DNA from: Armatimonadota bacterium
GTDB taxonomy: Bacteria > Armatimonadota > Fimbriimonadia > Fimbriimonadales > Fimbriimonadaceae
NCBI GenBank assembly: GCA_017303935.1
Contig: JAFLBD010000002.1
Coordinates: 786,784 to 850,783, forward strand
Direction: 5' to 3'
DNA length: 64,000 nt
In this document: positions 37,122-64,000 of the stretch, in pieces
Numbering within the stretch: position 1 is the stretch's first letter
Layout of the letters: the number at the start of each line of letters is the position of its first letter
Notes under the pieces: model-generated
What the model was told of the DNA's origin: nothing
The model's database searches: none
What the model saw: only the letters and a program-made list of their open reading frames with translations
Translations under genes and position numbers: made by a program

Positions 37122-37126
37122 GGTGG

Positions 37127-39074: not shown

Positions 39075-39076
39075 GT

Positions 39077-39862: not shown

Positions 39863-40011
39863 TGACCCGCGCCCTTTTTGGATCGGCATCGTTTAGCCCC
39901 GCAGCCGCAGTTTGGACGTCCAGCCCCGCCGACGTTAAGTCGTCGTAGAATGAGCCAGATGTACGCTGCACCTGCGAGTACCAGTAAGAACACGCTGCCC
40001 CAGTTCGCCAC
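39859..40011 (-). CDS. 50-aa single-TM Cys-rich protein (FeoB-associated Cys-rich membrane protein-like)
   Basis: Below the ORF-track size cut-off. My translation is VANWGSVFLLVLAGAAYIWLILRRLNVGGAGRPNCGCGAKRCRSKKGAGQ. The GTG shares 1 nt with the upstream TAG, and the stop overlaps the downstream ATG. Confidence 0.5.
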   Translation of the reverse strand: MANWGSVFLLVLAGAAYIWLILRRLNVGGAGRPNCGCGAKRCRSKKGAGQ

Positions 40012-41693: not shown

Positions 41694-41771
41694 TGGTTTT
41701 CCTGTGTTTCTGAGATGAGACTTGCGTCAAACGACGAACAGCCACGCTGAAATCAAGTTCAGCGGGCTCGA

Positions 41772-42260: not shown

Positions 42261-42355
42261 ACTCACCAGAACAGAATTTACCCGGAAAAAGTTCCCGCCA
42301 TCAAAATTGGAGCCGCGCACAGATTCCGATTCTGGCGTTCTGAGTCAGATGTATC

Positions 42356-42943
42356 CTAGTGCATTGAGTGATCTACCGCATTCGGTGTCTGCCCGTACTT
42401 GCTCTGAAGCCACGAGGTCAACGTTCTGATCTCGGCTTCTTGATCTCGGATTATGTTCGCGGCCAAGGTGCGAAGCTCGGGTCGCTCCGCAAACGTCGCC
42501 AGCTCTCGGGCCATGAGAACCGCATGCTCGTGGTGTCCAATCATGTCTGCGACGAAGCGTGCTTCAGCATCCTTCGGACTCAAGTTCTGTAGTGGTCGCA
42601 TCATCGCCTTGTATTTCCCATCGTCGCGGTATTCGGCTTCGTACCACTGAGCGTACCAAGTTTTCATCTCCGTAATCTCTGCTTCCTGTGCTCGAATGAT
42701 GTTTGATGCGAGTGTTCTGACATCAGGATCGACTACGACCGAAAGGAGCTCCTCGGAACTCGTGACAGCCTCTTGATGGTGTGGGATCATTCCGTGGATA
42801 AAGTCTCGCTCAGATGCAACAAACTCGGGTTTGGGATTAATCTGACCTTGAGAATCGTCTCGTATTGCCATAGTCCCTCGGTAAGCCAAGAAGACTGCAA
42901 CCAAGACAATGAACGCAAACAGCACCAGGTGACGTGGGTTCAT
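42356..42943 (-). CDS. DUF305 domain protein (second copy)
   Basis: 195 aa with an N-terminal TM/signal segment and MIPHHQEAV and MIGHHEHAV motifs. Confidence 0.7.
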   Translation of the reverse strand: MNPRHLVLFAFIVLVAVFLAYRGTMAIRDDSQGQINPKPEFVASERDFIHGMIPHHQEAVTSSEELLSVVVDPDVRTLASNIIRAQEAEITEMKTWYAQWYEAEYRDDGKYKAMMRPLQNLSPKDAEARFVADMIGHHEHAVLMARELATFAERPELRTLAANIIRDQEAEIRTLTSWLQSKYGQTPNAVDHSMH

Positions 42944-49100: not shown

Positions 49101-49203
49101 TCGTCTCACGAACTTTCGATTCTGGGATGTACTGCGCAACGACCGTGCTCTCGTTGGAAACAGCAATCGGATCGTAGTTGTAAGGCGCTCGATCCTCGCT
49201 CAT
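46159..49203 (-). CDS. hsdR: type I restriction enzyme R subunit
   Basis: 1014 aa with an HSDR_N-like N-terminus (VLVNGLPMVHIELKRRG), TTGSGKT, FDECHRS and helicase C motifs. Confidence 0.9.
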   Translation of the reverse strand: MSEDRAPYNYDPIAVSNESTVVAQYIPESKVRETSYQSEDALEKELIRILEGQAYDYLKFTSEEQLVANLQAQLEALNDVKFSLAEWKRFFESNIAGQNDGIAEKTIRIQEDSVQLLHRDDGTTKNIKLIDKQNIHNNRLQVINQYETAGTRATRFDVTVLVNGLPMVHIELKRRGVDIREAFNQIDRYQRDSFWAGSGLFEYVQLFVISNGTLTKYYSNTTRRQHIADAAGTKKIKKTSNSFEFTSWWADSQNKPIQELSAFAKTFFAKHTLLNILTRYCVLTADRMLLVMRPYQIAATERILQRIEVASNMKWLGSVRAGGYVWHTTGSGKTLTSFKTAQLASKMPSVDKVLFVVDRKDLDYQTMREYDRFEKGAANSNTSTAVLKRQLEDKNARIIITTIQKLANFINANKGHEVFGGHIVVIFDECHRSQFGDMHTAITRAFKRYNLFGFTGTPIFTENMSSGGNPNLKTTEQAFGEKLHTYTIVDAITDKNVLPFRIDYVNTVKMGDVLDKKVSAIDTERALLASERIGLVTSYILEHFDQKTKRTSTYSLGERRLRGFNALFATASIDAARTYYGEFKRQQAGLVPDKQLKVGINFSYAANEAVEDGALEEEEFETNHLSGAARDFLDEAIKDYNGMFGTSFDTSADKFQNYYKDLSLNLKERKIDLVIVVNMFLTGFDATTLNTLFVDKQLRAHGLLQAYSRTNRILNSVKAYGNIISFRDLEAETNDALSLFGNKEARGIAILKPYGDYFADYEAKVQELLAKFPLDERIVGEQAQKEFVTLFGSILRLQNILTSFDEFEGNAVLSDREGQDYRSIYLDIYADFRSGKDSDKEQILDDIVFEIELIKQVEINVDFILMLVAKFREAKGNGDDVEIRAQITRAVDSSPTLRNKKDLIENFVDSVSASGELDAEWRAFVDRKREEELGQIIEEESLKPEETRAFVESAFRDGVIRSTGTAITKVMPPTSRFSSDGGHGQKKQRVLAKLIAFFERFLGLVSRHGQNGDE

Positions 49204-49710
49204 GCGGTCGCCTCCTGGAAAGTTAGGAGCTTGTCACGGTAATACTCGTACTGCTGGCGGCGGGCGTTGAGTTCGGCAGGAAGACCTGAGCTGAGATCGT
49301 TCACGAGGGCATCGAACTTATCTAGTAAATCAGCAATCCGCTTCTGCTCTTCAATCGGCGGGACGGGCACGAGTACTTCAGCCAAGTTGCCGACTGCCAA
49401 ACCAGGCTGAGCGCCAGATGATTTAAACTTGTTTAAGTTCATGGACGTAAGCATGTAGTACGCAAAATCGACATCCATGGCGTCAGAAGGCTCCGTAACT
49501 ACAGCATGTTCAGTCGCGTAAAACTCACCCGACGCTCTCTTTACATTTCCGCAGAGTGCGCCTTGCCGTCCGATCAGCAGGTACTTCCCGGTGTGACTTG
49601 CCGATCTTCCATAACCGCGTAGTCCATTCCCCCCATAGACTGGAAATCGCGATTCACTAGACTTCGCAGAAGCGATGGCTGTCGCGGAAAGATGTTGTCC
49701 AGCTTTCATG

Positions 49711-49727
<17 letters not shown>
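49200..49727 (-). CDS. hsdS: type I R-M specificity subunit, C-terminal half (TRD2 + distal conserved region)
   Basis: 175 aa ending VPVPPIEEQKRIADLLDKFDALV...RRQQYEYYRDKLLTF. It lies in the +1 frame relative to the upstream half. Confidence 0.8.
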
Positions 49728-50528
<801 letters not shown>

Positions 50529-50532
<4 letters not shown>

Positions 50533-51587
50533 TCCGAGTCCTCCATTTCACTTTTCTTACCAGCTTCCAGAAAGCGGTCAAAGTCACTCTGGAAAATCCG
50601 ATCCTGGACAATCCTGTACTTCTCGAACTCCGTTTCCGCGTGGAGCTTGGCTTGCTCGTGGCTAATCCGCCCTGGCCCGGTGAGTACCTCGCGCTCGTTG
50701 AATTCCAGGAACCCATCGAGCCGCTTGGCCCAATCCTCCATCGACATGGGAATCTTTCGCTTAGCTTGGTCCTCGGCGTAGTCGAGGTACATGGAGACGA
50801 TCCGCTCCATGTGTTCCATCTCCTCATCGTTTAGGTAGTTCTTGGCAATCGAGACGTCAGACTTGACGATTTTTCCCACGGGAGCGGACTCCCACGTCGT
50901 GAGACCCATGTGCTCTTTCTCGGCGTCTGCCCGTTCGATGATGAGTTCGGCGGCAGTGTGGCGGTGAACTGCCCAGTGCATCTTGTTTTGCACCAGAGCG
51001 AAAAAGAGTTTGGTTGTTTGGGCCGCCTGGTCGTAGTCAAAGGCAGAAGCGTAGAGGTCGGTGACTTTTTGGTAGAACTTCCGCTCCGACAGACGGATTT
51101 CTCGGATAAGCTGGAGTTGTCGGTCGAAGTATTCGTCCGTGAACATGTGCCCCTTCTTGAGGCGATCCACGTCCATGACCCATCCCTGGATGGTGTAGAG
51201 CTTCACAATCTGACCAGCCCACTTTCGGAACTGCACCGCGCGTTCGTTCTCGATCTTGAACCCGACTGCGATGATCGCTTGCAGACTGTAGAGCTTGGTG
51301 TTGTAGGCCTTGCCGTCGGCGGCAGTTATCAAATGCTGTTTGATAACTGAAGATTCTTCGAGCTCGTGATCAGCGATAATCCGAAGCAAGTGGTGGTTTA
51401 CGGTTTGCACCGTGACGCCGTAGAGGGTCGCCATCATCTTTTGAGTCAACCAGAGGTTCTCTTCTAGATAGAGCAGCTCGGTAGATTCAGATTCGCCGCC
51501 AACCGATGCGATGAATGTCAGGTATTCCGCCGCCGAAGCGCGCATTTTATCCATGTCCTGCTTCGGCTTTTCGGGCTTGTCGCTCAT
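50529..51587 (-). CDS. RhuM-family (Fic/DOC-related) protein embedded in the R-M operon
   Basis: 352 aa with LWLTQKMMATLYGVTVQTVNHHL and a conserved C-terminal helical region. ATGA overlaps at both ends. Confidence 0.7.
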
Positions 51588-53155
51588 GCTGGACTCCCTT
51601 CGAGGTCGGCTACGATGGCGTCAATTTGGGTGCGTAGCTCAGATTGGCGAGCCACGATACCTGCGATTCTCGCGTTGAGGGCCGTGATGTCGATGGCTTC
51701 GCTCGTATCTTCCTTCTCCACGTAGCTGGAGACCGAAATGTTGTAGTTGTTCTCCTCGATGTCTGCCGCTGTGACCAACCTCGTGAAGTGCTCCTCAGTC
51801 TGACGGGCGTTGAACGCATCGAGAATTCTCTGCTGATGCTCAGGAAGGAGCCTGTTCTTGTTTCCCACACGCTGAAAGAGTGCGGAGGCGTCGATGAAGA
51901 GAATTGCGTTATCCTTCTTCGACTTTTTGAGGACGATGACGCACGTGGCAATTGGTGTCCCGAAGAACAGGTCGGGCGGAAGCTGAATGACAGTGTCGAT
52001 GTAGTTGTTGTCGATCAGGTACTTGCGAATCTTCTGCTCGGCCCCGCTCCGATACAGGACACCGGGGAACTCAACGATTGCGGCGGTCCCGTTGACGGCA
52101 AGCCAATGGAGCATGTGCATTGTGAACGCAAGGTCGGCGGCTTTCTTTGGAGCGAGCACACCGGCTGGTGCGAACCGTGGATCGTTGATCAGGAGCGGAT
52201 TAGCGTCTCCGTCCCATTTGATTGAGTAGGGTGGGTTGGAAACAATCGCTTCAAACGGTTCATCATCCCAGTGGAGCGGATCAGTCAGGGTGTCGCCGTG
52301 TGCGATGTGGAACTTCTCGTAGTTCACGTCATGCAGGAACATGTTGATCCGAGCCAGGTTGTACGTCGTCAGGTTGATTTCCTGCCCATAGAAGCCTTGG
52401 CGAACGTTTTCCTTGCCGAGCACTTTGGCGAACTGGAGCAAAAGTGACCCGGAACCTACAGCGGGGTCATACACCTTATTGACCTGAGTCTTGCCAGCCA
52501 CGGCGATCTTCGCCAAAACCTCGGAGACTTCCTGCGGGGTGAAGAATTCACCTCCCGACTTTCCGGCTTGAGAGGCGTACATGGTCATCAAGAATTCGTA
52601 CGCATCACCGAAGAGGTCAATCGAGTTGTCTTCGTAGTTGCCGAGCGGTAGGTCTCCGATGGCATCTAAGAGTTTTACGAGCTTCTCGTTGCGCTTTGCC
52701 ACCGTTGGCCCGAGCTTTGCACTGTTTATATCAAGGTCATCGAACAGACCCTTCAGGTCATCTTCGCTCTCCGTCCCTACAGCCGAGCCTTCGATGTTGT
52801 TGAAGACTCTTTCAAGGGTCTCATTGAGGTTTTCGTCACTCTTGGCTCGTTTGCGGACGTTTACGAATAGCTCAGACGGCAGAATGTAGAACCCTTTCTC
52901 AGCAACCGTTTCGGTGCGCCCAAGCTCCGCATCCTTGTCGGACAGTTCGGCGTAGTTGAAATCTACTTCGCCAGCCTCCTTTTCGAGCTTATTGATGTAA
53001 GAAGACAGGTTCTCGGAGATGAACCGATAAAAAAGCATCCCGAGTACGTAAGACTTGAAATCCCAACCATCCACCGAGCCACGAAGATCATTGGCGATTC
53101 GCCAGATGGTCTTGTGAATCTCCGCCCTCTGAGTCTCGCTTGTGGTTGGCGGCAT
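51584..53155 (-). CDS. hsdM: type I R-M N6-adenine DNA methyltransferase
   Basis: 523 aa with an HsdM N-terminal domain, VYDPAVGSGSLL (motif I) and IVSNPPYS (motif IV). Confidence 0.9.
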   Translation of the reverse strand: MPPTTSETQRAEIHKTIWRIANDLRGSVDGWDFKSYVLGMLFYRFISENLSSYINKLEKEAGEVDFNYAELSDKDAELGRTETVAEKGFYILPSELFVNVRKRAKSDENLNETLERVFNNIEGSAVGTESEDDLKGLFDDLDINSAKLGPTVAKRNEKLVKLLDAIGDLPLGNYEDNSIDLFGDAYEFLMTMYASQAGKSGGEFFTPQEVSEVLAKIAVAGKTQVNKVYDPAVGSGSLLLQFAKVLGKENVRQGFYGQEINLTTYNLARINMFLHDVNYEKFHIAHGDTLTDPLHWDDEPFEAIVSNPPYSIKWDGDANPLLINDPRFAPAGVLAPKKAADLAFTMHMLHWLAVNGTAAIVEFPGVLYRSGAEQKIRKYLIDNNYIDTVIQLPPDLFFGTPIATCVIVLKKSKKDNAILFIDASALFQRVGNKNRLLPEHQQRILDAFNARQTEEHFTRLVTAADIEENNYNISVSSYVEKEDTSEAIDITALNARIAGIVARQSELRTQIDAIVADLEGSPA

Positions 53156-53345
53156 CAGACCCTAGCCGCTCCTGGAGGAGAGCCGTTTAGCCGGTGACTG
53201 CCTTCAAATGAAATCATAATTCTAGCTTCATTTTGACCCATTTGCCGGGTGCTCACATGGTAGCGAGATGCAAATGGGTTAGAAAGGCCTTCGCACGTTT
53301 GAAGTTACTTTTGGTTTGAGCTGAGAATGAACCAAGAATGGGCGC

Positions 53346-53525
53346 ATGCCCCGTTGCTACCTGTGCTCCAAACTGATCCCGGTCGAGGAACGTCCATTGC
53401 GGCGGCGGGTTCGTGTTGGCGAGATCGAGAAGAAGAAGTACGGCGCGGAGCGAGCCAGGTTCGTGCAGAGCCAGTACGGGATGAGGGTCGTCTGCAAGTC
53501 GTGTGCGGCGTTCCAAGATCGCTAG
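53346..53525 (+). CDS. 59-aa basic zinc-ribbon protein (two CxxC pairs)
   Basis: Below the track cut-off. My translation is MPRCYLCSKLIPVEERPLRRRVRVGEIEKKKYGAERARFVQSQYGMRVVCKSCAAFQDR. A hairpin terminator follows it. Confidence 0.45.
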   Translation: MPRCYLCSKLIPVEERPLRRRVRVGEIEKKKYGAERARFVQSQYGMRVVCKSCAAFQDR

Positions 53526-53618
53526 GCGCGGCAGAGGGAGCTTCATGAGCTTCACATGTTTCTGACGGCGGTCGTGGTGATCGGATTGGTCTCTCTGACT
53601 CTGTGGATACGCTGAAAA

Positions 53619-53644
53619 GACCCCGCTGGTGGTGCGGGGTTTTG
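53619..53644 (+). terminator. intrinsic terminator-like hairpin (possibly bidirectional)
   Basis: ACCCCGC-TGGTGGT-GCGGGGT followed by TTT and preceded by AAAAG. Confidence 0.6.
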
Positions 53645-53648
53645 GTGG

Positions 53649-55064
53649 GTGTCAGTTGGAGTCGTACTTGACTCCTCGGATATAGTCGGCGGCCTTTTGT
53701 GCCTGGGCGGCGGCAATCACGACGGCCTTGGGACCAACTACGCATACTGGCGACTCCTGGAGTTTCTCCTCTTCGGTACATGGGTCGATGAAATCACCGG
53801 CAAACTGGTGCTGAGCGCCAAGCAAGCCGCATATCTCACCGGAAACGAACGCAAGTGGCTCAGCCACCGTTTCGCTTTGCAACCTCTGCTCGACGACTTC
53901 TCCCGAGAAGTCTTTCCCTTGGACACGGAGGGAATTGTCTTTAACCATTACTTCTTAGCTAACCGGGCTGGCCAGGTTGTAACCGACATTCCAGATTGGT
54001 TGTTGAGCGCGGCCAGCGCCGAACGACGGAGCACAGGTGGAAAGCGCGTCGAGTTCTCGACGGGTAGGGACTGGACGCCGAGAGAGTCTGCAAAAGTGTT
54101 GAAGTCGTTGAGAGAAGAAGCGACTATTGCGGCCGTCACGGCCGGTTGTGCCGAGACCCAGCGCCTCCTTTCCTACTTGAACAGCCTCGCTCCGAACACC
54201 TTTGTGAAGATTCGAAAACGCGTTCCCCAAGCACATGTGGTAGCCGATGCGGTCGAAGCAGACGTCGAGCGGCAACATAACCTCCTTCAGGCCATCGAGC
54301 AAATGTGTCAACCCTTCTACAAGCCGGTTGAGAACTCGCCCCGTGCGTACACGCTCAACGAATCGTTCCCACGCCTAAAGCGGGAAGTTCGATGTGTCCT
54401 CACAGAGGGCTGGTTGAAGGCCGACTTAGCTTCTGCACAGCTTGCCATTGCAGCGCACATCTGGAAAGTACCCGTCGTCGTGGAATTCCTGGCGTCAGAG
54501 CAATCCATCTGGTTGGAACTACAGGCTTGGATGAAGACGACAGGTGACCCCGAATCGAAATCTAACCTGAAGGAAATGATGTATAGCCTGCTGTTCGGGA
54601 TGTCGCGTAAGAACCTGAGCGCGAAAGCGAGAGGCATGTTTCCAGGGTACAAGCACCCTTGGCTACGCCTGAGGCGACATAATATTGTCGCAGCGATGTT
54701 GAAAGCGCGAGAGGACCAGTTTGAAGTGTTGCGGCGCACCGGCAAGACTGAGGATGCCTTTGGACGCACGCTGATTCTTCAGCCAAAGGGTCGGTCACAC
54801 GGTAGCCACCAGCCAGATACTGCAAACCGTATCCTGGCCCAAGTTGCACAAAGTTGGGAACTCCGATTGATGTTGCCAATCCTAGACTTGGCCGAGGCTC
54901 ATCGAGGTACGAACGGATTCACAGTCACCATGTGGCTTCACGATGGCGTATGTATCAACGTTCACGATGCTAGGCGCATCGAAGGTTGGAAGGAGAGAAT
55001 ATCCTCGGCAGTTGCAAAGCAAGCTGGTGAACTCGGAATTCCGACCAGATTAGTCTGGGAGTAG
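53649..55064 (+). CDS. stand-alone family A DNA polymerase-like domain protein (no exonuclease domains)
   Basis: 471 aa from GTG 53649 (start uncertain). Motif A-like ADLASAQLAIAAH (D259). Motif B-like LKEMMYSLLFGMS (K308). RILAQVAQS. Motif C-like WLHDG (D432). Confidence 0.65.
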   Translation: MSVGVVLDSSDIVGGLLCLGGGNHDGLGTNYAYWRLLEFLLFGTWVDEITGKLVLSAKQAAYLTGNERKWLSHRFALQPLLDDFSREVFPLDTEGIVFNHYFLANRAGQVVTDIPDWLLSAASAERRSTGGKRVEFSTGRDWTPRESAKVLKSLREEATIAAVTAGCAETQRLLSYLNSLAPNTFVKIRKRVPQAHVVADAVEADVERQHNLLQAIEQMCQPFYKPVENSPRAYTLNESFPRLKREVRCVLTEGWLKADLASAQLAIAAHIWKVPVVVEFLASEQSIWLELQAWMKTTGDPESKSNLKEMMYSLLFGMSRKNLSAKARGMFPGYKHPWLRLRRHNIVAAMLKAREDQFEVLRRTGKTEDAFGRTLILQPKGRSHGSHQPDTANRILAQVAQSWELRLMLPILDLAEAHRGTNGFTVTMWLHDGVCINVHDARRIEGWKERISSAVAKQAGELGIPTRLVWE

Positions 55065-55467
55065 TTTCCTTATGAGATGCAATGCTGGTTCTGGTTCTAC
55101 TTGAATCAGCATTGCTAATCTCTGATTTCCATTTGTTAGATTCAGTGATTTCATTTATCCATTCCCTCTGTTTGCTATGCTTCCAACCATTCTCTTTCCT
55201 TAATCTTCTAGCAGTTCCTTCAGATTCTCCAATAGCCCGTGACGGGCTTGCCCCTACCTACTTCTCTGGTTTCTTCCTCTTAACTCTCCTAATTGGGATT
55301 ACCCATAACTATTCATCCCTAAGCGCCGCACTTTGAACCTGAGAGCCTGCAGAAATTTCGCACCAGCGCACTAAGGCAGGTCGACCACAAACGCGGTTTT
55401 GCGAGCCAAATGCTTTGCATGAAGTGCTTCATCAACAACACACCTCGGTCCATAATCACTCAAGGCC

Positions 55468-58400
55468 ATGGAGTCCATCATCACCATCCCGGAAGTAGGT
55501 CAGCTCGTCGAGGTGCGTCGGCGACAGTTCGTGGTGACCAGGGCTCGTCCATCCGGCCTGGACGGAGTAGAAGCGCAAACTGTGCTTGAACTCGCCTCTG
55601 TAGAGGACGATTCCTCTGGAGAGCAACTCACCGTAGTCTGGGAATCTGAAATCGGGGCCAGACTCGGCGAAGCCGCATCAATTCCAGAACCCACTCGATT
55701 CGACGACCCGGCCCAAATCGACGCATTCCTGTCCGCAGTCCGCTGGGGCGCCATCAGTTCTGCGGATACTCGCACCCTCCTGGCCCCTTTCCGCAGCGGA
55801 ATCGAAATCCACGACTACCAGCTTGAGCCGCTTGTCCGCGCGCTCCAAATGCCGCGCGTTAATCTGCTCATCGCAGATGGCGTTGGTATCGGTAAGACGG
55901 TGGAAGCCGGACTCGTCGCGCAAGAACTCATTCTCCGCAATCGCGCCCATAACGTCCTCGTGGTTTGCCCGGCCACACTGCAAATTCAGTGGCGCGACGA
56001 AATGCGGGACAAGTTCGGTCTTGAGTTCCGCATCGTGGACAGCGATACGCTCAAGCAACTTCGGCGAGAGCGCGGCATCCATGTCAACCCCTGGAAACAC
56101 TTCCCACGGCTCATCACCAGCATCGACTTCCTCAAGCGTGAGCGTTCGATGCAGCTGTTCCGCGAGCTACTCCCACCAGATGGTCGACCAACCTACCCTC
56201 GGACCTTCGACTTGATGATTCTTGATGAAGCCCACGGCTCCGCGCCATCCGGTTCAGGAAAGTATGCGACCGATTCTCAACGAACGTTGGCCATCCGAGA
56301 ATTAGCCCCTCACTTCGAGCACAAGATGTTTCTCTCGGCCACCCCGCACAACGGATACTCCGAATCCTTCACCGCGCTCCTTGAACTCCTGGACCCCCAA
56401 CGTTACGTTCGTTATCGAGGCTCAAATGATGCAGACAAGGTCGCCCAATACATGGAGCGCATCAAGGACCAGTTGCAATCGGTCACGATGGTGCGTAGGC
56501 TCAAGGACGACATCCCGCCGCATGGCGATGGCACACCACGCTTCCCCGCGCGAAAACTTGAGCGGCTAGAGGTCGACTATATGGAAGCGGAGCGGAATGC
56601 CCATGAGCTCCTGGAGAATTTCTTCAAATCGAGAGCAGAAACTCAAGGCAACCACTCCGGTCGCTATGCGACCGAGTTCATGCATAAGCTGCTCAAGAAG
56701 CGGCTGTTCTCGAGTCCCCTGGCATTCCACGAGACGCTGTCCAAGCACGCCAACACGCTACGACATGGCCGCGGAGAGCAGGCAAAGAAGGTTGACCCCG
56801 ACCTCCTCAAAAAGCGCATCGCTGCCCTGGAAGAATCCACGTCGAACGAGCAAGAACGGGAGGAGCGAGAAGACGACGCGGTCGTGGAAACCACGCGTGC
56901 AGCGGCCCCGCTGACACCCGAGCAAGATAGTCTGCTCAACGAGCTACTTCGCTGGTCAGAGCAAGCTTCTCGGAGCGCCGATGCGAAGACCCGCGTCCTC
57001 TTGTATTGGCTCAAGAAGACCCTGAAGCCCAACGACCAGTGGAACGACGAGCGGGTCATTCTCTTCACCGAGTATCGCGACACCCAGAACTGGCTGTTTC
57101 AGTTGCTGAATCAAGATGGCCTGGGTGATGTCGGTCGACTTGAGACCATGTACGGAGGCATGGATGACGACAAGCGCGAGGCGCTCAAAGCCGCCTTCCA
57201 AGCCAACCCCGCGCAATCACCCCTACGCATTCTCCTCGCCACCGACACGGCTAGCGAAGGCATCAACCTTCAGAACCACTGTAACAAGCTCGTCCACATC
57301 GAAATCCCCTGGAATCCGAACCGGATGGAGCAGCGCAACGGGCGCATCGACCGCCACGGCCAGAAGCGACCTTGCGAGGTGTACCACTTCGTTGGCCGAG
57401 GATTTGAAAGAGGCGGACTTGAAGCAGACCTCTACTTCCTATTCCGAGCTTGCCAGAAGGTCAACCAAATCCGAGAAGACCTCGGCAAGGTCGGTCCCGT
57501 CATCGAGCAGCAAGTCGAGGAAGCCATGCTTGGCAAACGAACCGAGCTTCAGACGACTCAGGCCGAGGCCGCATCGACTCCCATTCGCAAGTTGCTCACC
57601 GCAGAGCGCAAGATGCGAGAGCAAATCGAGTTGCTTCGCAACCGACTGGAGGAGACCAAGCGAGACCTTGGCATCTCGCCCGAGGCCATCCAAGCCGTAG
57701 TCGAAGTCGCGCTCGCACTTGAAGACCGTCCCGGACTAGAGCCGGTGCAAGTCATCGGAATCCCGAAGGCGTTCAAGATGCCTGCGCTCACCGGACCCTG
57801 GGAAGCCGCCCGAGCAGGCAACCCCCATCCGTACACCCAAGAGCCGCGGCCCATCGTTTTCGACCACGCCTACGTGGAAGGCCGTGATGATGTCGAACTC
57901 ATCCACCTCAACCACCGCCTCGTTCAAATGTCGCTCCGACTCTTGCGTGCGGAAGTCTGGAGCAGCGGCAACCGTCGAAAGCTATCTCGAGTTTCCGTCA
58001 AAGTCGTCTCCGACACGTACCTAAGCACACCTGCTTTGATTGCCTTCGGTCGACTCGTCGTTCTAGGTGCGACCCACCAGCGACTCCACGAGGAAGTCAT
58101 CACCGCAGGTGGCATTCTCAGGCCGGGTGGGATTGCCCGCATGAAGGTCGAGGACGTCCAACTTGCCCTTGAGCATGCTGAGAATGGGCTTGTAAACAAA
58201 ACCTATCTTGAGCAAATCCAGACAGACTGGCCAAGCCTCGGCCCCGCGCTTCAGAACGCCCTCGACATCCGCATGCGCGAAGTCACCCGCAACCTCGAAG
58301 GCCGCTTCCTAGAAAAGGCCGACCGAGAAAAGAAGGACGTCGAGAAGATTCTCCGCGAACTCGATGCCACCATCCGCGCCGAACTCAAAGAGCCAGACAA

Positions 58401-58608
58401 CCAGCTGACGTTCGAATTCAACGAACTTGAGCGCGACCAATACCGCCGAAACGTCGATGCCATCCGGCTCCGTCTTGAGGAAATCCCGGCTGAAATCGAG
58501 GAGGAGAAACGACTGGTCGACCGCCGCTACGAAAGCCCGACGCCACGCCTTTTCCCGGTCTGCGTCCTGCTCGTCGTGCCCGACACCATGGTAGAGGGAG
58601 CGAGATGA
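55468..58608 (+). CDS. SNF2-family helicase/translocase (DrmD-like)
   Basis: 1046 aa with HDYQLEP, ADGVGIGKT, ILDEAHG, LSATPHNG, TDTASEGINLQ and QRNGRIDRHGQ. Confidence 0.85.
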   Translation: MESIITIPEVGQLVEVRRRQFVVTRARPSGLDGVEAQTVLELASVEDDSSGEQLTVVWESEIGARLGEAASIPEPTRFDDPAQIDAFLSAVRWGAISSADTRTLLAPFRSGIEIHDYQLEPLVRALQMPRVNLLIADGVGIGKTVEAGLVAQELILRNRAHNVLVVCPATLQIQWRDEMRDKFGLEFRIVDSDTLKQLRRERGIHVNPWKHFPRLITSIDFLKRERSMQLFRELLPPDGRPTYPRTFDLMILDEAHGSAPSGSGKYATDSQRTLAIRELAPHFEHKMFLSATPHNGYSESFTALLELLDPQRYVRYRGSNDADKVAQYMERIKDQLQSVTMVRRLKDDIPPHGDGTPRFPARKLERLEVDYMEAERNAHELLENFFKSRAETQGNHSGRYATEFMHKLLKKRLFSSPLAFHETLSKHANTLRHGRGEQAKKVDPDLLKKRIAALEESTSNEQEREEREDDAVVETTRAAAPLTPEQDSLLNELLRWSEQASRSADAKTRVLLYWLKKTLKPNDQWNDERVILFTEYRDTQNWLFQLLNQDGLGDVGRLETMYGGMDDDKREALKAAFQANPAQSPLRILLATDTASEGINLQNHCNKLVHIEIPWNPNRMEQRNGRIDRHGQKRPCEVYHFVGRGFERGGLEADLYFLFRACQKVNQIREDLGKVGPVIEQQVEEAMLGKRTELQTTQAEAASTPIRKLLTAERKMREQIELLRNRLEETKRDLGISPEAIQAVVEVALALEDRPGLEPVQVIGIPKAFKMPALTGPWEAARAGNPHPYTQEPRPIVFDHAYVEGRDDVELIHLNHRLVQMSLRLLRAEVWSSGNRRKLSRVSVKVVSDTYLSTPALIAFGRLVVLGATHQRLHEEVITAGGILRPGGIARMKVEDVQLALEHAENGLVNKTYLEQIQTDWPSLGPALQNALDIRMREVTRNLEGRFLEKADREKKDVEKILRELDATIRAELKEPDNQLTFEFNELERDQYRRNVDAIRLRLEEIPAEIEEEKRLVDRRYESPTPRLFPVCVLLVVPDTMVEGAR

Positions 58609-61600
58609 GAAGGCCGCCGAAACTTGAGTGGATGGGGTTGATGGATGTCGTCGGCCCCTTCGTCACCCCTGCCATTGTCGCCGAGGCATTCCCCAGCGGC
58701 CTCGAAGGTCACGACTCCGGTTTGCTCAAGGGACTCCGTAGCGCCTACAAAACCTGGGAAGACTCCGACGACCCCGTCTGGCATAGAGAGTGGGTCAATG
58801 TGGTCCTCAGCAACGTCCTGGGCTACCAAGAAAAGCACATTCTCCAGGACCAGGCCATCCCCGAGTCCATCAACTACGTCGACCGGACCCATCACACCAC
58901 CATCCGGCCAACCTTCATCATCCATCAACCCGAATTCCCCGACCGGGGCCGCATTCTCGTCATGCGACTGCCCAAAGGTGAGTCGACCTCCAAGCCCAAA
59001 GCGGAAGCCAAGTGGCAAGCCTCGCCCATCAGCCAGATGCAGATGCTGCTCCAGGCGAACAACGAGAAAGTCGGCTTGGTCACCAACGGCGAAGAATGGG
59101 TTCTGGTCAACAACTGCGGAACCGGTGCCGTGGGCTTCGCCACCTGGTACGCCTATCTCTGGCTTGAGGAGCACGACACGCTCCGCAGTTTCCGGTCGCT
59201 CTTGTCCATCCGACGTGTCTTCGGCGGCGAGCCCGGAAGTCGACTAGTCGACCTTCTCGCGAAGGGTGCCGAAGACCAACAGGATGTCACCGACCGCCTG
59301 GGCTATCAAGTCCGCCGAGCGGTCGAAGAACTGGTCGGCGCCTTCGAGCGGCTCGACCGCGACTCCAACCGAGAACTCCTCAAGGGCGTTGGAGAAACCG
59401 AGGTCTACGAAGGCGTGCTCACCGTGATGATGCGTCTGGTGTTCCTCTTCTGCGCCGAGGAACGCGGGCTGCTCCATCTAGGCGAAGACCTATACGACCG
59501 GTTCTATGCCGTCTCCACGCTCCGCGAGCAGTTGCATGATGACGCAAGCAAGCTCACCGAGGAAGTCCTCGACCGTCGCTCATCGGCCTGGTGTCGGTTG
59601 CTGGCGACCTTCCGCATGGTCTACCAAGGAGTCGCTCACGAAGACCTGCGCATCCCTGCCTACGGCGGAACGCTCTTCGACCCCGACCGATTCCCGTGGC
59701 TCGAAGGCCGGCATGCCGATGGAACCAACGAGCCGCCTCACGTCAGCGACCGCATCGTGTTGCACCTGCTCGACTCGCTCCAGGTGCTGCGCCAGGGCCA
59801 GGAAGCCCGCAAGCTATCGTTCCATGCCCTCGATGTCGAGCAAATCGGCCACGTTTACGAAGGCCTGCTCGACCACACAGCGAAGCGAGCGCTCAAGCCC
59901 GTGCTTGGTCTGGTCGGCAAGGAAGGCGACGAACCCGAAGTCGACTTGGAGACGCTGGAAGCCAAGGTCGCTGAAGGTCGCGACAAGTTCATCGTGTATC
60001 TGAAGGACCAAACCGGCAAGACCGAGCGTGCCCTGGGCAACTTGCTAGACCAAGTAACCGATGCCGAGAACCTCCGTAAGTTGCGGGTGGTCTGCGGCGA
60101 CGACCACGACCTCTTCGAGCGGGTCAAACCGTTCGCCAACCTGATTCGCGAAGACAGCTTTGGCAACGTCCAGGTCTATCCCGAGGGCGCGCTTTACGCA
60201 ACCGTGGGGAGCGACCGGCGCAGCACCGGCACCCACTACACGCCGCGCATGCTCACCGAGGAAGTCGTCAAGTACGCTCTGGAGCCGCTGGTCTATGTCG
60301 GCCCCGCCGAGGGGTTGCCCGAGGAGGAGTGGACGCTCAAAGATGCCAAGGCTATCGTCGACCTCAAGGTCTGCGACATGGCGATGGGTTCGGGTGCATT
60401 CCTCGTGGCGGCCTGCCGATTCCTTTCCATCAAGTTGGTGGAGGCGTGGGCGGTTGCCGAAGAGAAAGCCGCCCGCCGACTGGGCTTCTCGGCCGAAGGT
60501 CACTTCTTCACCCATCGCATTGAGGGCGACCACCACGCCAAAACGCCTGGCACGACCGTCGCAACACCGTTTGGCGATATCGCCGTTGCCGACCCGAGCC
60601 AGGAGTTGATTCCAAACGATGCCGAGGAGCGGTTGGCGATGGCGAGGCGCATCGTCGCTGACCGATGCCTCTATGGCGTCGACCGGAACGCGATGGCGGT
60701 GGAGATGGCGAAGTTGTCGCTCTGGCTTACCACCCTGCGCAAAGACCGGCCGTTCACCTTCCTCGACCATGCCCTGCGCCATGGCGACTCCCTGCTCGGC
60801 GTCACCGAGCGGCAGTTGGAGTTCTTCAATGTGAACCTAGAAGAGGATAAGCAGTCACAAGCCCTCTTCTTAAGGTGGGTGCCGGAGTACGTCGAGAAGG
60901 TGCGCAACCTACGCCAACAGATTGCCCGCATCCCCAGTCACGACCCCGAGGCGATTCGGCGTAAGCAGAGGTTGTTCGACCAGGTGCGAGAATTGGAGAA
61001 GCCGCTCAAGTTTGCCGCCGACGCTCTATTGGCGTGCGAGCTTTCGGAAGGCAATGCTCAGAACACATTGGTAGGACGGACAAAGGTGCAGATGACCTTG
61101 ACCGAGGTTCCCGCAGGAGACCGCGTCAAGACGGTCTATCCAGAACTATCTGGACGACCGACTCTTCACTGGGAACTTGAGTTCCCGGATGTGTTTGACC
61201 AGGGCGGATTTGATGCAGTCGTTGGCAACCCGCCTTATCAAGGTGGCAGGCAAACCGCTACACATCAAGGACCAGACTATCACGCTCTGATTTGTCTTAT
61301 CAACCTAGTGCCCGGAACGGTCGACCTAGTTTGTCACTTCTTCAAAAGGGCGTTCCTGCTCATCGGCAACGGAGGTGCTGTTGCAGTTGTTTCGACAAAT
61401 TCTGTTAAGGAGACTTCGAATCGGGAGGCTTCGCTAGATTTCGTCCTTAGTTCCGGGGGGGCAATTTACCGTGCCACATCCGAGGCTCACTGGGGCGGAG
61501 CGGCGGCGGTGACGACTCTAAATGTCTGGATTTACAAGGGGCCCTGGGATGGTAACTACTTCATCGACGGAGCAAAGGTCGAGACAATCCATAGTTCGCT

Positions 61601-62711
61601 CGATGCTGATGTTGACTTGGCTCAGATTGAAAAACTGAAGCACTCTTTCCGCTACTCAGAAGGAACCAAACTGTATGGAGACGCCTTCATAATTAGCAAA
61701 GCCCAGCTAGGTACCATTCTGCGTGACAATCCAGGGCTCGGCGATTACCTACGTGTCTATGTTAACGGAGATGTTTTGAATGACACTCCCGACTGCGTGG
61801 GAACGGATGTCGTTGTGGACTTCGGTGAACTAGACGTCCAAGAGATTTCTGGTTGTGAAAGTATCATCAGAACTCTTTCATCGCAAGTAGCATACGAGCG
61901 CAGAAATCAGACTCGACAAATCCACGAGCATCGCCCTTGGCTTCATTGGGATAAGCGCACAAGATTCTTTGAAGAGGCAAGGAGCCGAGAACGCATTCTT
62001 GCCTGCGCAATCGTTTCGAGGCGACTGATGTTTGACTATGTCGACCCTCAAAAACTGTTCGCCCACGGTATCAAGTTGTTCTTGGATGATACTGGCTACC
62101 TGCTTGCGGTGTTGCAATCGAGTATTCACACTGCGTGGTCTCGGGTGGTCGCTTCGCGCATGAGACAAGAGACGCGATACTCGACCACCGACTGCTTTGA
62201 TACTTTTCCATTTCCGCCATTTTCCCGCGAGTTAGCCGAAGCTGGCAATCAGCTTGATGAGGCAAGGAGAGCTAGTCGTGAGAATCGGCAAATCGGACTT
62301 AACGGGCTATACGCGCTCGTCGATGATATCAACTGCCAAGAGGAGGACATCGTGGCAGTTCGACACGCAATTGTTTCGGTTGACGTGGCAGTTGCGTCGA
62401 GTCTTAGCTGGGACCCGACTTTCCTTGAGCATGGCTTCCACCCTTGGCATCCTGGAACGAGATTCACCATCTCGCCCCAGGCCCGCAAAGAAGTCCTCCG
62501 CCGCCTGCTGAAGCTGAACCACGAGCGCTACACCGAAGAAGTCGCCGCCGGCCTTCATGACAAGAAGGCTAAGAAATCCTCCGCCACCCCCGGCTCAACC
62601 CCCAAACGCGGCCGCAAACCTAAATCCTCGCAGCCGGATGCTACCGACCTCACCTCCCCCCGCCGCAACCTCTTCGACACCCAACTCACGTTCGGTGAGG
62701 TCGACAACTAG
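58605..62711 (+). CDS. large N6-adenine DNA methyltransferase (Eco57I/type IIG-like) with an HSDR_N-like N-terminal domain and a long C-terminal region
   Basis: 1368 aa with VCDMAMGSGAFLV (motif I) and VVGNPPYQGG (motif IV). The N-terminus has GLVTNGEEWVLV. ATGA overlap with the SNF2 stop. Confidence 0.85.
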   Translation: MRRPPKLEWMGLMDVVGPFVTPAIVAEAFPSGLEGHDSGLLKGLRSAYKTWEDSDDPVWHREWVNVVLSNVLGYQEKHILQDQAIPESINYVDRTHHTTIRPTFIIHQPEFPDRGRILVMRLPKGESTSKPKAEAKWQASPISQMQMLLQANNEKVGLVTNGEEWVLVNNCGTGAVGFATWYAYLWLEEHDTLRSFRSLLSIRRVFGGEPGSRLVDLLAKGAEDQQDVTDRLGYQVRRAVEELVGAFERLDRDSNRELLKGVGETEVYEGVLTVMMRLVFLFCAEERGLLHLGEDLYDRFYAVSTLREQLHDDASKLTEEVLDRRSSAWCRLLATFRMVYQGVAHEDLRIPAYGGTLFDPDRFPWLEGRHADGTNEPPHVSDRIVLHLLDSLQVLRQGQEARKLSFHALDVEQIGHVYEGLLDHTAKRALKPVLGLVGKEGDEPEVDLETLEAKVAEGRDKFIVYLKDQTGKTERALGNLLDQVTDAENLRKLRVVCGDDHDLFERVKPFANLIREDSFGNVQVYPEGALYATVGSDRRSTGTHYTPRMLTEEVVKYALEPLVYVGPAEGLPEEEWTLKDAKAIVDLKVCDMAMGSGAFLVAACRFLSIKLVEAWAVAEEKAARRLGFSAEGHFFTHRIEGDHHAKTPGTTVATPFGDIAVADPSQELIPNDAEERLAMARRIVADRCLYGVDRNAMAVEMAKLSLWLTTLRKDRPFTFLDHALRHGDSLLGVTERQLEFFNVNLEEDKQSQALFLRWVPEYVEKVRNLRQQIARIPSHDPEAIRRKQRLFDQVRELEKPLKFAADALLACELSEGNAQNTLVGRTKVQMTLTEVPAGDRVKTVYPELSGRPTLHWELEFPDVFDQGGFDAVVGNPPYQGGRQTATHQGPDYHALICLINLVPGTVDLVCHFFKRAFLLIGNGGAVAVVSTNSVKETSNREASLDFVLSSGGAIYRATSEAHWGGAAAVTTLNVWIYKGPWDGNYFIDGAKVETIHSSLDADVDLAQIEKLKHSFRYSEGTKLYGDAFIISKAQLGTILRDNPGLGDYLRVYVNGDVLNDTPDCVGTDVVVDFGELDVQEISGCESIIRTLSSQVAYERRNQTRQIHEHRPWLHWDKRTRFFEEARSRERILACAIVSRRLMFDYVDPQKLFAHGIKLFLDDTGYLLAVLQSSIHTAWSRVVASRMRQETRYSTTDCFDTFPFPPFSRELAEAGNQLDEARRASRENRQIGLNGLYALVDDINCQEEDIVAVRHAIVSVDVAVASSLSWDPTFLEHGFHPWHPGTRFTISPQARKEVLRRLLKLNHERYTEEVAAGLHDKKAKKSSATPGSTPKRGRKPKSSQPDATDLTSPRRNLFDTQLTFGEVDN

Positions 62712-63397
62712 ACAATATGGGTCGGCCAGAGACGCTCAATTTGATGGTACATCTCCATCAAGAGGAACTTCTCGCGTCCGATTGCGTCCTTAAGGTCCTT
62801 CGGAAAGCGGGCCATATCTTCATAGGTTGCTAAGACCACGAACTCCACTTGGTCGTACTCAAACTTGAAGTCGTACGGAACGCGCCATTCACGCTCGTGG
62901 GAGTAGTCGCAAGTCGACTTGTTCTCCCAATGGGCGTCTCGATACGCCTTAGGAGCATAGCCAGGCAGGAATGGCGTGATGAATGAATAAACATGAGAGT
63001 GAAAGCCTTTGCGGGGCTTTTCAATATCGCAATCCTCTTGGTGAATGAACTCACCCTGCTTCGTAAACAGGTCAGGTTTGACATACAGGGCCGGACCACC
63101 TCCTGTAGCGAAGATTCTAGGCTTGGCAAACCCGACCCCATAAGCAGAATAGGCGTCGCAATGACTTGGAAACGACCACCAAGGGCACTCCGTCAAACAT
63201 ACGGCCTTTGCGCCTGTCCAAGGCATATTGGTGGCATAGACTGTTTTGGACTGCAAGATGCCGACGAGCCGGTCAAAAGCGGAAGCTGGAATCTTAGAAT
63301 AAACTTCGTTCTCCGCGCCCTCAGACTCACCATAGGGTCTAGCGTCTTTGCAGAAGTGTGCAACATAGTCTGAAAAATCGGGGCGATTTCCACGCAT
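62708..63397 (-). CDS. AbiGi-like abortive-infection family protein
   Basis: 229 aa with VAHFCKD, VCLTECPW, YGVGFAKP and HEREWRVP. This pattern resembles AbiGi from memory. It converges on the methyltransferase stop through a shared CTAG. Confidence 0.5.
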   Translation of the reverse strand: MRGNRPDFSDYVAHFCKDARPYGESEGAENEVYSKIPASAFDRLVGILQSKTVYATNMPWTGAKAVCLTECPWWSFPSHCDAYSAYGVGFAKPRIFATGGGPALYVKPDLFTKQGEFIHQEDCDIEKPRKGFHSHVYSFITPFLPGYAPKAYRDAHWENKSTCDYSHEREWRVPYDFKFEYDQVEFVVLATYEDMARFPKDLKDAIGREKFLLMEMYHQIERLWPTHIV

Positions 63398-63511
63398 AGC
63401 CCATTATGAATGAGGCAACACATCGTTTCAACTGGCTCGAGGTGCCAAAATCGGGATTCAGGTTGGTTCGAATCTCCGCGGCGTTCCGTCCTGAATCTTG
63501 CTCCTCTCCAA

Positions 63512-64000
63512 ATGGCCGAGTATCGCGACCCCAAATACCTTTCTGATGGCGACAATCCGATTGACCGGGTGCGTTGTCCCATTCACGGGTTTATCAAATA
63601 TTCGCCCAATGAGCGACTCATCATCGACTCGCCCTACTTCCGACGACTCAGGCACATCCGGCAACTAGGCCTCACGGAGTACGCGTATCCGGGTGCAAAC
63701 CACTCTCGCTTCGAACACTCTCTCGGTGTGATGGCCATGGCATCTGCCATGTTCGATAGCCTGGCCGCCAAGAAGGGTGAAACCATGGAGAAGGAACTCG
63801 AGCAAGTTCCCTGGTTTGCGGAGGATACGCTAGCCAAAGCACGCCAGGTCGTCAGGCTTGCCGCACTGCTCCATGATACTGGCCATCCTCCGTTCAGTCA
63901 CGGCGCAGAGCATATGTGGTCGGCGGGTGGGCATGAGGAGTGGAGCATCAAGGTCGTCAAGGACCCTGAGTTCCTCGGCAAGCTGATTGATGAGACATGG
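63512..64000 (+). CDS. HD-domain phosphohydrolase (dGTPase/SAMHD1-like), 3' end beyond the window
   Basis: Not in the track because no stop lies in the window. My translation is MAEYRDPKYL...RRLRHIRQLGL...HSRFEHSLGVMAMA...LLHDTGHPPFSHGAEH. Confidence 0.75.
   Translation, partial: MAEYRDPKYLSDGDNPIDRVRCPIHGFIKYSPNERLIIDSPYFRRLRHIRQLGLTEYAYPGANHSRFEHSLGVMAMASAMFDSLAAKKGETMEKELEQVPWFAEDTLAKARQVVRLAALLHDTGHPPFSHGAEHMWSAGGHEEWSIKVVKDPEFLGKLIDETW

Follow-up and report, generated by a model that had tools for sequence, protein, structure and literature searches.

DISARM type I, as defined by PADLOC, consists of DrmA, DrmB, DrmC, DrmD, and DrmMI (PMC9252829). In the systems that have been characterised, the SNF2 translocase DrmD contributes to protection against some phages, and the PLD nuclease DrmC was found to be dispensable in both tested systems (bioRxiv 10.1101/2021.12.28.474362; PMC9142583). 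It has already been published that defence genes may be embedded within DISARM, BREX, Type I R-M, and Hma systems (Payne et al., bioRxiv 10.1101/2024.01.29.577857).

The locus described here is found towards the end of the window, i.e. the whole stretch of 64,000 nucleotides that was analysed. The features of interest that lie wholly or partly within it are:

53649 to 55064, plus strand: p471, a compact family-A DNA-polymerase-like protein, upstream of drmD
55468 to 58608, plus strand: drmD, 1046 aa, SNF2-like helicase of class 1 DISARM
58605 to 62711, plus strand: drmMI, 1368 aa, MmeI-like N6-adenine DNA methyltransferase with a target-recognition domain
62708 to 63397, minus strand: AbiGi-like gene, convergent, overlapping the drmMI stop by 4 bases
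63512 to 64000 in the window, extrapolated to 64942, plus strand: HD-domain dNTP triphosphohydrolase-like gene, of which 163 of the 476 codons (the 5' part) are inside

The original prediction, which was made from the letters of the window, described the second and third of these as a translationally coupled pair. Both sets of coordinates were exact, as was the ATGA where the start of drmMI overlaps the stop of drmD; a purine-rich gagggagcgag is found just upstream. The proposed SNF2 and Eco57I-like domains were recovered using Pfam (SNF2-rel_dom and Helicase_C in the former protein; Eco57I, MmeI_Mtase, and MmeI_TRD in the latter), and the proposed family names, DrmD and DrmMI, are correct according to PADLOC for both proteins and to the NCBIfam equivalog for DrmD. 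The latter model, NF038317 (DISARM_DrmD), matches aa 8-1040 with 1248.8 bits (cut-off 610), and PADLOC PDLC02621 matches the full length with 1311.7 bits. The Walker A (GIGKT, aa 140) and DEAH (aa 253) motifs are intact, and the nearest solved structures are RapA and SNF2/Rad54 ATPases.

DrmMI was assigned using the PADLOC models and synteny; NCBIfam holds no DrmMI model. PADLOC PDLC02643 matches aa 7-1331 with 1417.4 bits. With a cut-off of 27 for each of the MmeI models in Pfam, MmeI_Mtase (51.7 bits) and MmeI_TRD (51.8 bits) pass, as does Eco57I, and MmeI_N at 17.8 bits falls below. Methylase motif I (DMAMGSG at aa 591, of the form DxGxG) precedes motif IV (NPPY at aa 875). The region comprising aa ~840-1260 is swapped when DrmMI is compared with alleles sharing 93-100% identity with it over aa 1-720; judged from these alignments, the target-recognition domain of DrmMI is exchanged among near-identical alleles. 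Alleles with a swapped domain occur in L091, L092, and L093. DrmMI does not match the PglX equivalog NF033452 (30.7 bits, cut-off 500), the NCBIfam PglX models overall give at most 31 bits against cut-offs of 400-900, and brx genes are absent from the contig.

That neither protein encodes an obvious nuclease had been predicted, and Pfam, fold search, and a residue check agree on this. A profile of the N-terminal 540 aa of DrmMI (38 sequences) found nothing among PDB sequences at E up to 1, and a Foldseek search of the PDB with an AlphaFold model of the same part (pLDDT 85) gave a best E of 0.13. The weak top matches were PD-(D/E)xK proteins (RecU, 9Y1L, and BpuSI), none of them significant, which does not justify naming the N-terminus a nuclease domain. 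No PD-(D/E)xK motif was found in DrmMI, where residues E98 and D103, conserved in the relatives, are replaced by T98 and T103.

A contig from the Logan metagenome assemblies, L001, is identical to window positions 52302-64000 (0 mismatches in 11,699 bases, 100% identity) and extends a further 8.7 kb past the window end. Past drmMI its gene order is the AbiGi-like gene (minus strand), the HD dNTPase gene, p190, drmA, drmB, and drmC. The features beyond the window, in extrapolated window coordinates, are:

64939 to 65511, plus strand: p190, from L001
65511 to 69050 (L001 13210 to 16749), plus strand: drmA (NF038325, PDB 7S9V)
69047 to 70906 (L001 16746 to 18605), plus strand: drmB (NF038324, Pfam MZB)
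70899 to 71687 (L001 18598 to 19386), plus strand: drmC (NF038319, PLDc_2)
from 71684, convergent: C5 methylase, directly after drmC

The five DISARM genes thus all lie on the plus strand and span 16.2 kb with three genes intervening. On L001 the junctions are ATGA between the HD gene and p190 and between drmA and drmB, and TAATG between p190 and drmA; drmB and drmC overlap by 8 bases, the start codon of drmC being TTG. The link to drmABC goes via the overlap of 11.7 kb with L001, which is a metagenome assembly; the evidence is strong, yet still that of an assembly. The claim that no DrmABC follows the pair holds inside the window, but not on L001, where drmABC is found on the same strand just past the window end. 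The apparent lack of DrmABC is an effect of the window edge, which lies only 1.3 kb past drmMI; drmA starts 2.8 kb from drmMI, ~1.5 kb outside. The search beyond the window that the original prediction had recommended consequently found drmABC and, with it, the ordinary split DISARM locus that the prediction had named as speaking against its own reading. The puzzle of a missing effector was a mistaken one, as DrmA, DrmB, and DrmC are present on L001. Where a defence system looks partial and sits at the edge of a window, a comparison with longer contigs is advisable before a new variant is claimed.

DrmA scores 1324.9 bits against NCBIfam NF038325 (cut-off 950) and matches the solved class 1 DrmA of Serratia (PDB 7S9V) with an E of 1.8e-292. 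It is of the short form (NCBIfam DrmAS) with 1179 aa, and the alignment begins at residue 136 of the 1325-residue Serratia chain. DrmB gives 631.1 bits with NF038324 (cut-off 240) and contains the DUF1998/MZB domain (Pfam MZB 37.1 bits, cut-off 24.2). DrmC belongs to the PLD family (178.5 bits with NF038319, cut-off 133; Pfam PLDc_2) and has the HxK(x)4D motif as HAKVAVGD at aa 203. All five DISARM proteins match their models over the full length, and DrmD, DrmMI, DrmA, and DrmC retain all their catalytic motifs. DrmE had no match among the proteins scanned.

Taken together, drmD and drmMI very probably belong to an intact class 1 DISARM as its first half, with drmABC downstream and three cargo genes between the two halves. 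DrmA is present in 58 of 80 related loci, and in each of the remaining 22 the available sequence ends less than 3.5 kb past DrmMI; not one of the 80 that has enough flanking sequence is free of DrmA. The order DrmD-DrmMI-gap-DrmA-DrmB is kept in 57 related loci, the gap between DrmMI and DrmA being 0 to 8.3 kb (median 2.6 kb) and exceeding 600 bp in 47. The genes found in these gaps are a varied defence cargo of UvrD/GajB-like, GmrSD, AAA_21/AriA, OLD, KAP, and MazF-type genes.

The mechanism proposed follows what has been described for the class 1 system of Serratia (bioRxiv 10.1101/2021.12.28.474362; PMC9142583). By this analogy, the C-terminal recognition domain of DrmMI would specify a short non-palindromic motif in which the enzyme methylates adenine, and the host DNA would be marked in this way. 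The main antiviral engine would be a DrmA-DrmB helicase complex that loads on incoming DNA ends, and whose ATPase activity would be damped by the cognate methylation.

One could also imagine drmD and drmMI to be an autonomous two-gene modification-dependent system of a split Type ISP-like or BREX-like kind, uncoupled from drmABC by the antisense insert, and the stop codon of drmMI is indeed overlapped by the convergent gene. Such a system is very improbable given that a nuclease is undetectable in both proteins (MmeI_N is below its cut-off, the fold search reached no better than the E of 0.13 given above, and T98 and T103 stand where the relatives have acidic residues). The residual protection seen in Serratia without drmABC is due to DrmMII, not to DrmD or DrmMI (bioRxiv 10.1101/2021.12.28.474362), DrmA is never missing in relatives with enough flanking sequence, and in one relative (L085) all seven genes lie on one strand, abutting or overlapping. 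It is harder still to believe that the 1368-aa protein is a true Type IIL/IIG R-M enzyme to which the SNF2 gene is a mere accessory. Both MmeI_Mtase and MmeI_TRD exceed their cut-offs, PADLOC REase_MTase_IIG (PDLC03618) matches the full length with 840 bits, MmeI (5HR4) is the sole PDB sequence match, and many homologue records are named 'type IIL restriction-modification enzyme MmeI'. The DrmMI model, however, scores far higher (1417 versus 840 bits), the match to MmeI is limited to aa 785-1216, i.e. the methylase and recognition-domain part, MmeI_N and the PD-(D/E)xK motif are both wanting, and DISARM synteny is kept in 58 of the 80 relatives.

The three foreign genes between the two halves might further suggest a decaying, non-functional DISARM remnant disrupted by insertions, and drmMI is in fact broken into ORFs of 437 aa and 952 aa in a 96%-identical relative (L093). 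There is little likelihood of this for the present locus, where the five genes are full length with their catalytic motifs kept, and inserts at the junction between DrmMI and DrmA are the rule in the relatives, as seen from the 47 of 57 gaps mentioned above. The locus is accordingly regarded as one more class 1 DISARM, ordinary and complete.

Of the three cargo genes, the AbiGi-like one had been foreseen as a convergent gene following the pair, and it is indeed found there (Pfam AbiGi 27.7 bits, cut-off 22.4; PADLOC AbiGi E 0.0029). No AbiGii partner was found, the sole adjacent ORF (63193-63582) having no match in Pfam or PADLOC. The slot of this gene is empty in L085; different genes occupy it in the near relatives L093, L094, and L086. 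Being antisense, the gene breaks the co-transcription of drmD-drmMI and drmABC, and the two halves would thus each require a promoter. Upstream of the HD gene, the promoter scan marked no sigma-70-like site on the plus strand. The scans for promoters and terminators were set aside, their counts being close to what shuffled sequence gave. A stretch of ~75 bp upstream of the HD gene is conserved and includes the tRNA T-arm-like GGTTCGAATCT. It is not recognisable as a tRNA or attachment-site remnant, since there is no tRNA gene within the window and no Rfam family matched on the 20-kb contig.

The HD protein contains the Pfam domains HD and HD_assoc_2 as well as the metal-binding residues H...HD...D. 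Its sequence matches in the PDB are 2HEK (7e-42), EF1143/2O6I (9e-38), and SAMHD1 (~1e-24), and by this sequence similarity it is a dNTPase of the SAMHD1/EF1143 type. It was not accepted as an anti-phage dGTPase, as NF041026 gives 32.7 bits, far under the cut-off of 400. Homology likewise makes p190 a 190-aa DarG-C-terminal/YwgA-like protein. Membership of DarTG was rejected for p190, which aligns only to residues 165-325 of the 338 in DarG (44 bits, cut-off 250); no macrodomain was found in p190 and no DarT on the contig. The PADLOC matches of the pair are marginal (dGTPase, E 1e-11 over ~100 aa; the C-terminal part of DarG, E 6e-13; PDC-M19A, E 6e-4). A search of the PDB with the p190 family profile gave no meaningful match, and nothing relevant was found in the literature on YwgA/YwfO.

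An overlap of the HD-p190 pair with drmA recurs in seven contigs, and the pair also occurs alone, in regions rich in toxin-antitoxin genes. A fusion of the two proteins would have been an argument for a functional link. None was seen among the best 150 of 2064 representatives in an exhaustive profile search with p190 (E up to 0.001); these 150 are, with few exceptions, stand-alone proteins of ~175-195 aa, and one has 331 aa, a DarG-like length. Homologues of the HD protein, p190, the AbiGi-like protein, p471, and p84 were not found in the 80 DISARM loci (tblastn 1e-5, phmmer 0.01). It is tentatively suggested, as a possibility with the odds against it, that the HD dNTPase and p190 constitute an uncatalogued, toxin-antitoxin-like two-gene anti-phage module that has become fixed directly upstream of drmA, overlapping it, in one DISARM lineage, probably of Armatimonadota. 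Depletion of dNTPs would then be restrained by p190 as the antitoxin-like partner. If so, this may be a seven-gene DISARM variant with a functional link, or a shared regulation, between sensing by DrmAB and the depletion of nucleotides. The pair is the only lead at the locus judged worth an experiment.

The gene upstream of drmD had been called polymerase-like, and its structural model bears this out. The AlphaFold model of p471 (pLDDT 87.6) matches the Taq Stoffel and Klenow fragments over about 370-390 columns in Foldseek (E 1.5e-8, probability 1.00), and the residues resembling PolA motifs A and C, D259 (KADLASAQLAI) and H431-D432 (WLHDG), are invariant in 30 homologues. Homologues are found upstream of DrmD-DrmMI in L091, L092, and L093, and without DISARM in L090; none is found in the 80 more distant DISARM loci. 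By this distribution in sequenced loci, p471 is a neighbour and not a conserved DISARM component. In L090-L093 a mobile-element backbone (DUF932, DUF2958, a C5 methylase, and an integrase) lies upstream of p471, and it has no counterpart within the window.

The surroundings of the locus form a defence and metal-resistance island of the mobile-element type. Judged by the names of the nearest homologues, the host is probably an Armatimonadota bacterium. The same window also contains a Type I R-M operon with a RhuM/PDC-S05 gene nested inside. Three known themes thus come together, namely nested defence genes, exchange of methylase specificity domains, and a mobile island with metal-resistance genes.

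Type ISP enzymes such as LlaGI and LlaBIII read an asymmetric site by means of a recognition domain, which is combined with an ATP-dependent translocase and an adenine methylase. In these enzymes an Mrr-like nuclease, the ATPase, the methylase, and the recognition domain form a single polypeptide. The present pair, which had been likened to a Type ISP enzyme split in two, shares this combination but consists of two polypeptides with an SNF2 motor (DrmD), and neither Pfam nor PADLOC finds a nuclease domain in it, Mrr-like or other. The MmeI-family Type IIL enzymes and PglX of BREX have in common with DrmMI the N6-adenine methylase with NPPY and a C-terminal MmeI-type recognition domain, and in all of them specificity is diversified through exchange of this domain. 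DrmMI differs from the MmeI family in being without the MmeI-type nuclease motif, and from BREX in that the PglX models fail and brx genes are lacking.

As in the cases of embedding described by Payne et al. (bioRxiv 10.1101/2024.01.29.577857), foreign defence-type genes are here nested in a multi-gene system and are mostly co-oriented with it. The AbiGi-like gene is antisense, which applies to only ~3% of the embedded genes in that study, and in comparison with that cargo HD-p190 has no better than marginal PADLOC matches. With the class 1 DISARM of Serratia sp. SCBI (drmD, drmMI, drmA, drmB, and drmC, together with drmMII) the locus shares all five class 1 genes. The C5 cytosine methylase directly after drmC is reminiscent of the second methylase in Serratia, but it is convergent here, and its best model is a generic Type II methylase (343 bits), with DrmMII matching weakly (52 bits). 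The locus further differs from that of Serratia in the three cargo genes embedded between drmMI and drmA, in the short form of DrmA, and in the phylum of its host.

The 1046-aa SNF2 protein and the 1368-aa methyltransferase encoded by the overlapping gene pair are members of the DrmD and DrmMI families, and the locus is a class 1 DISARM system of the ordinary kind, complete in itself and truncated by the window edge. Its main features are listed below; L001 is a metagenome contig that is identical to the end of the window and runs further.

55468-58608, plus strand: drmD, 1046 aa (ORF listing)
58605-62711, plus strand: drmMI, 1368 aa (ORF listing)
60800-62400, plus strand: swapped target-recognition region of DrmMI, aa ~740-1260 (allele comparison)
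62708-63397, minus strand: AbiGi-like gene converging on drmMI (Pfam AbiGi, 27.7 vs 22.4 bits)
63512 onward (both genes, L001 11211-13210), plus strand: HD gene, encoding a SAMHD1-type dNTPase, and p190, encoding a 190-aa DarG-C-terminal/YwgA-like protein (Pfam, sequence matches)
71684 onward, extrapolated (L001 19383-20410), minus strand: C5 cytosine methylase gene converging on drmC with a 4-base overlap

At the junction, gagggagcgagATGAgaagg, the start of drmMI overlaps the stop of drmD in ATGA and is preceded by a purine-rich stretch. According to Pfam, the first protein has SNF2-rel_dom and Helicase_C domains, and the second Eco57I, MmeI_Mtase and MmeI_TRD. The motifs of both DrmD (GIGKT at aa 140, DEAH at aa 253) and DrmMI (DMAMGSG at aa 591, NPPY at aa 875) are intact. 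The two proteins match the PADLOC models end to end, DrmD with 1312 bits to PDLC02621 (aa 5-1041) and DrmMI with 1417 bits to PDLC02643 (aa 7-1331). DrmD also scores 1249 bits against the NCBIfam equivalog DISARM_DrmD (cut-off 610). NCBIfam holds no DrmMI model, and its models for the BREX protein PglX give at most 31 bits with DrmMI, against cut-offs of 400-900. The original prediction was right about the two ORFs, their domains and the convergent AbiGi-like gene, and also about the likeness to DrmD and DrmMI.

It had further been claimed that the pair stands without DrmA, DrmB and DrmC, and this does not hold. An exact-sequence look-up of the methyltransferase located L001 (24.5 kb, Logan SRR13786856), which is the same as window positions 52302-64000 at every base (11,699 aligned, 0 mismatches) and extends 8.7 kb beyond. 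Past the AbiGi-like gene it encodes, all on the plus strand, the HD protein (476 aa), p190, and then a helicase of 1179 aa, an MZB/DUF1998 protein of 619 aa and a PLD protein of 262 aa. According to NCBIfam the last three are DrmA (NF038325, 1325 bits, cut-off 950), DrmB (NF038324, 631 bits, cut-off 240) and DrmC (NF038319, 178.5 bits, cut-off 133), and PADLOC concurs. For DrmA, the class 1 protein solved from Serratia (7S9V) is matched with an E-value of 1.8e-292; Walker A and DELH are present in DrmA, and HxK(x)4D in DrmC. Neighbouring genes overlap, with ATGA at HD/p190 and drmA/drmB, TAATG at p190/drmA and 8 shared bases at drmB/drmC. The prediction had itself named drmABC just outside the window as the observation that would refute it, and drmA indeed starts at extrapolated position 65511, 1.5 kb past the window end. 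PADLOC defines DISARM type I as DrmA, DrmB, DrmC, DrmD and DrmMI (PMC9252829); since all five genes are found at the locus, it belongs to this type.

A DrmMI scan using one genome per species gave 80 related loci, 34-52% identical and spread over many phyla, in which tblastn shows the order DrmD-DrmMI-[gap]-DrmA-DrmB, with DrmC after DrmB wherever it was detected. DrmA is present in 58 of these, the remaining 22 all ending less than 3.5 kb beyond DrmMI, and no orphan DrmD-DrmMI pair was found where the sequence was long enough to show one. The gap between drmMI and drmA, measured in 57 loci, spans 0-8.3 kb (median 2.6 kb) and is below ~320 bp in only 10; the other 47 carry variable defence-type cargo of 0.6-8.3 kb. 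Among the 118 ORFs in these gaps are UvrD/GajB-like helicases, GmrSD, AAA_21/AAA_15 ATPases (AriA, OLD), KAP NTPases, MazF, XisH/XisI and PD-(D/E)xK proteins. The drmMI-drmA gap is therefore not unusual, and the junction is a cargo hotspot. Inserts are also seen at the drmD-drmMI junction in some of the 80 loci.

At the present locus the cargo next to drmA is the HD-p190 pair. The HD protein has HD and HD_assoc_2 domains, keeps the metal-binding residues H...HD...D, and matches the dNTP triphosphohydrolases EF1143 (9e-38) and SAMHD1 (~1e-24). The curated model for anti-phage dGTPases gave 33 bits against a cut-off of 400, and this assignment was rejected. The similarity of p190 to DarG is confined to the C-terminal part outside the macrodomain (NF048014 positions 165-325 of 338, E 1.6e-11; PADLOC DarG, E 6e-13), and p190 homologues are named 'YwgA' in JGI. 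PADLOC matches to the pair are only marginal. The close p190 family is small (19 clusters), and the wider family of 2064 representatives consists nearly entirely of stand-alone proteins of ~180-190 aa, with no HD-p190 fusion among the best 150.

An HD gene precedes the p190 homologue in 11 of 12 contigs, L001 included. The pair directly abuts or overlaps drmA in seven (L001, L085, L086, L093, L094, L095 and L096), is found alone in toxin-antitoxin-rich regions in L082/L083, L087 and L088/L089, and is absent from all 80 more distant DISARM loci searched. L085 has a compact DrmD-DrmMI-HD-p190-DrmA-DrmB-DrmC array without an AbiGi gene. The slot between drmMI and HD differs even among near-identical relatives:

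Window locus: AbiGi-like gene
L093: DUF6602 NucC-like nuclease and a 292-aa gene
L094: DUF6602
L086: DUF4917/PDC-S21 and others
L085: empty

Whatever fills the slot, homology among near relatives restarts ~75 bp before the HD start (window 63440-63511; L001 11139-11210). Part of this stretch, GGTTCGAATCT, looks like a tRNA T-arm; searches of it with ARAGORN and against Rfam gave no match. We infer that the HD-p190 pair is a mobile module, perhaps of a toxin-antitoxin-like kind, and that it was fixed before drmA in one lineage; cooperation with DrmAB is putative. It is the sole lead of the locus that deserves bench work.

The recognition domain of DrmMI has been exchanged between alleles. Compared with the related contigs L091, L092 and L093, DrmD is ~95% identical and DrmMI aa 1-720 are 93-100% identical, while aa ~840-1260, which include the MmeI_TRD match, show 21-48% identity (45-85% in L092) and the last ~100 aa return to 54-70%. 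This implies distinct methylation motifs in otherwise near-identical systems. In L093 (JGI 3300071636, a 64.6-kb contig from a 96%-identical relative) drmMI is called at 10001-14144 as a 437-aa ORF and a 952-aa ORF that overlap, either by a frameshift or by an assembly error.

No obvious nuclease is encoded in either protein, as the prediction had stated. The N-terminal 540 aa of DrmMI were modelled with 37 homologues (pLDDT 85); in a Foldseek search of the PDB the best match had E 0.13, and the weak matches at the top of the list are PD-(D/E)xK proteins. MmeI_N, a precomputed match in many homologues, reaches 17.8 bits in DrmMI (cut-off 27), and the acidic positions conserved in relatives, E98 (36/38) and D103 (31/38), are both Thr. 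The effector puzzle raised from this is the same as the general DISARM question, and its answer lies in the downstream DrmAB complex and DrmC.

Two ORFs precede drmD:

53649-55064, plus strand: p471, 471 aa, compact family-A polymerase-like, without an exonuclease domain
55082-55336, plus strand: 84-aa ORF between p471 and drmD, pyrimidine- and AT-rich

p471 is a compact family-A DNA-polymerase-like protein. Its model (pLDDT 87.6) matches Taq and Klenow (E ~1e-8, probability 1.00), and D259 and H431-D432 are invariant, in sequence contexts similar to PolA motifs A and C. Its homologue adjoins DrmD-DrmMI in L091-L093 and occurs without DISARM in L090, a Fimbriimonadaceae MAG; the setting in L090-L093 is a mobile-element-like backbone with integrase, DUF932, DUF2958 and C5 methylase. 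The 84-aa ORF has no family match in Pfam or PADLOC, ORFs of other lengths are called at its position (77 aa in L093, 143 aa in L092), and it may be non-coding leader or promoter DNA.

Further upstream the window contains the following:

30673-42943: copper/metal-resistance cluster (P-type ATPase with HMA domain, two DUF305 proteins, YHS/YtkA protein, DUF2231 protein)
43484-53155, minus strand: Type I R-M operon with flanking helicase, R-M part 46159-53155
43484-46159, minus strand: PDC-S53 SF1 helicase-like protein, 891 aa, adjoining hsdR
46159-49203, minus strand: hsdR, after the hsdS ORFs
49711-50532 and 49200-49727, minus strand: hsdS, two half-size ORFs
50529-51587, minus strand: RhuM-family gene (PDC-S05), nested between hsdM and the split hsdS

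The metal-resistance cluster together with the defence genes suggests that the region is a mobile island. With RhuM/PDC-S05 within it and PDC-S53 adjoining, the Type I R-M operon repeats the embedding seen in DISARM. Embedded defence genes are frequent in DISARM, BREX and Type I R-M (Payne et al., bioRxiv 10.1101/2024.01.29.577857), and the cargo at this locus is of the kind already described.

The C5 methylase converging on drmC recalls DrmMII of Serratia, but matches the DrmMII model much more poorly (52 bits) than that of generic Type II methylases (343 bits). It may serve DISARM as a second methylase, as in Serratia, or else act independently as part of another R-M system or as an orphan. 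In Serratia class 1 DISARM, DrmMI methylates the non-palindromic motif ACACAG; DNA activates the DrmAB ATPase, less strongly when it is methylated than when it is not, and DNA with a 5' overhang is preferred; DrmC is dispensable; and hardly any protection against one phage is left when drmD and drmMI are deleted together (bioRxiv 10.1101/2021.12.28.474362; PMC9142583). The present locus most likely acts in the same way: by analogy, its DrmMI would methylate a non-palindromic motif, its DrmAB ATPase would be switched on by DNA, favouring a 5' overhang, and reduced by methylation, and its DrmC would be dispensable.
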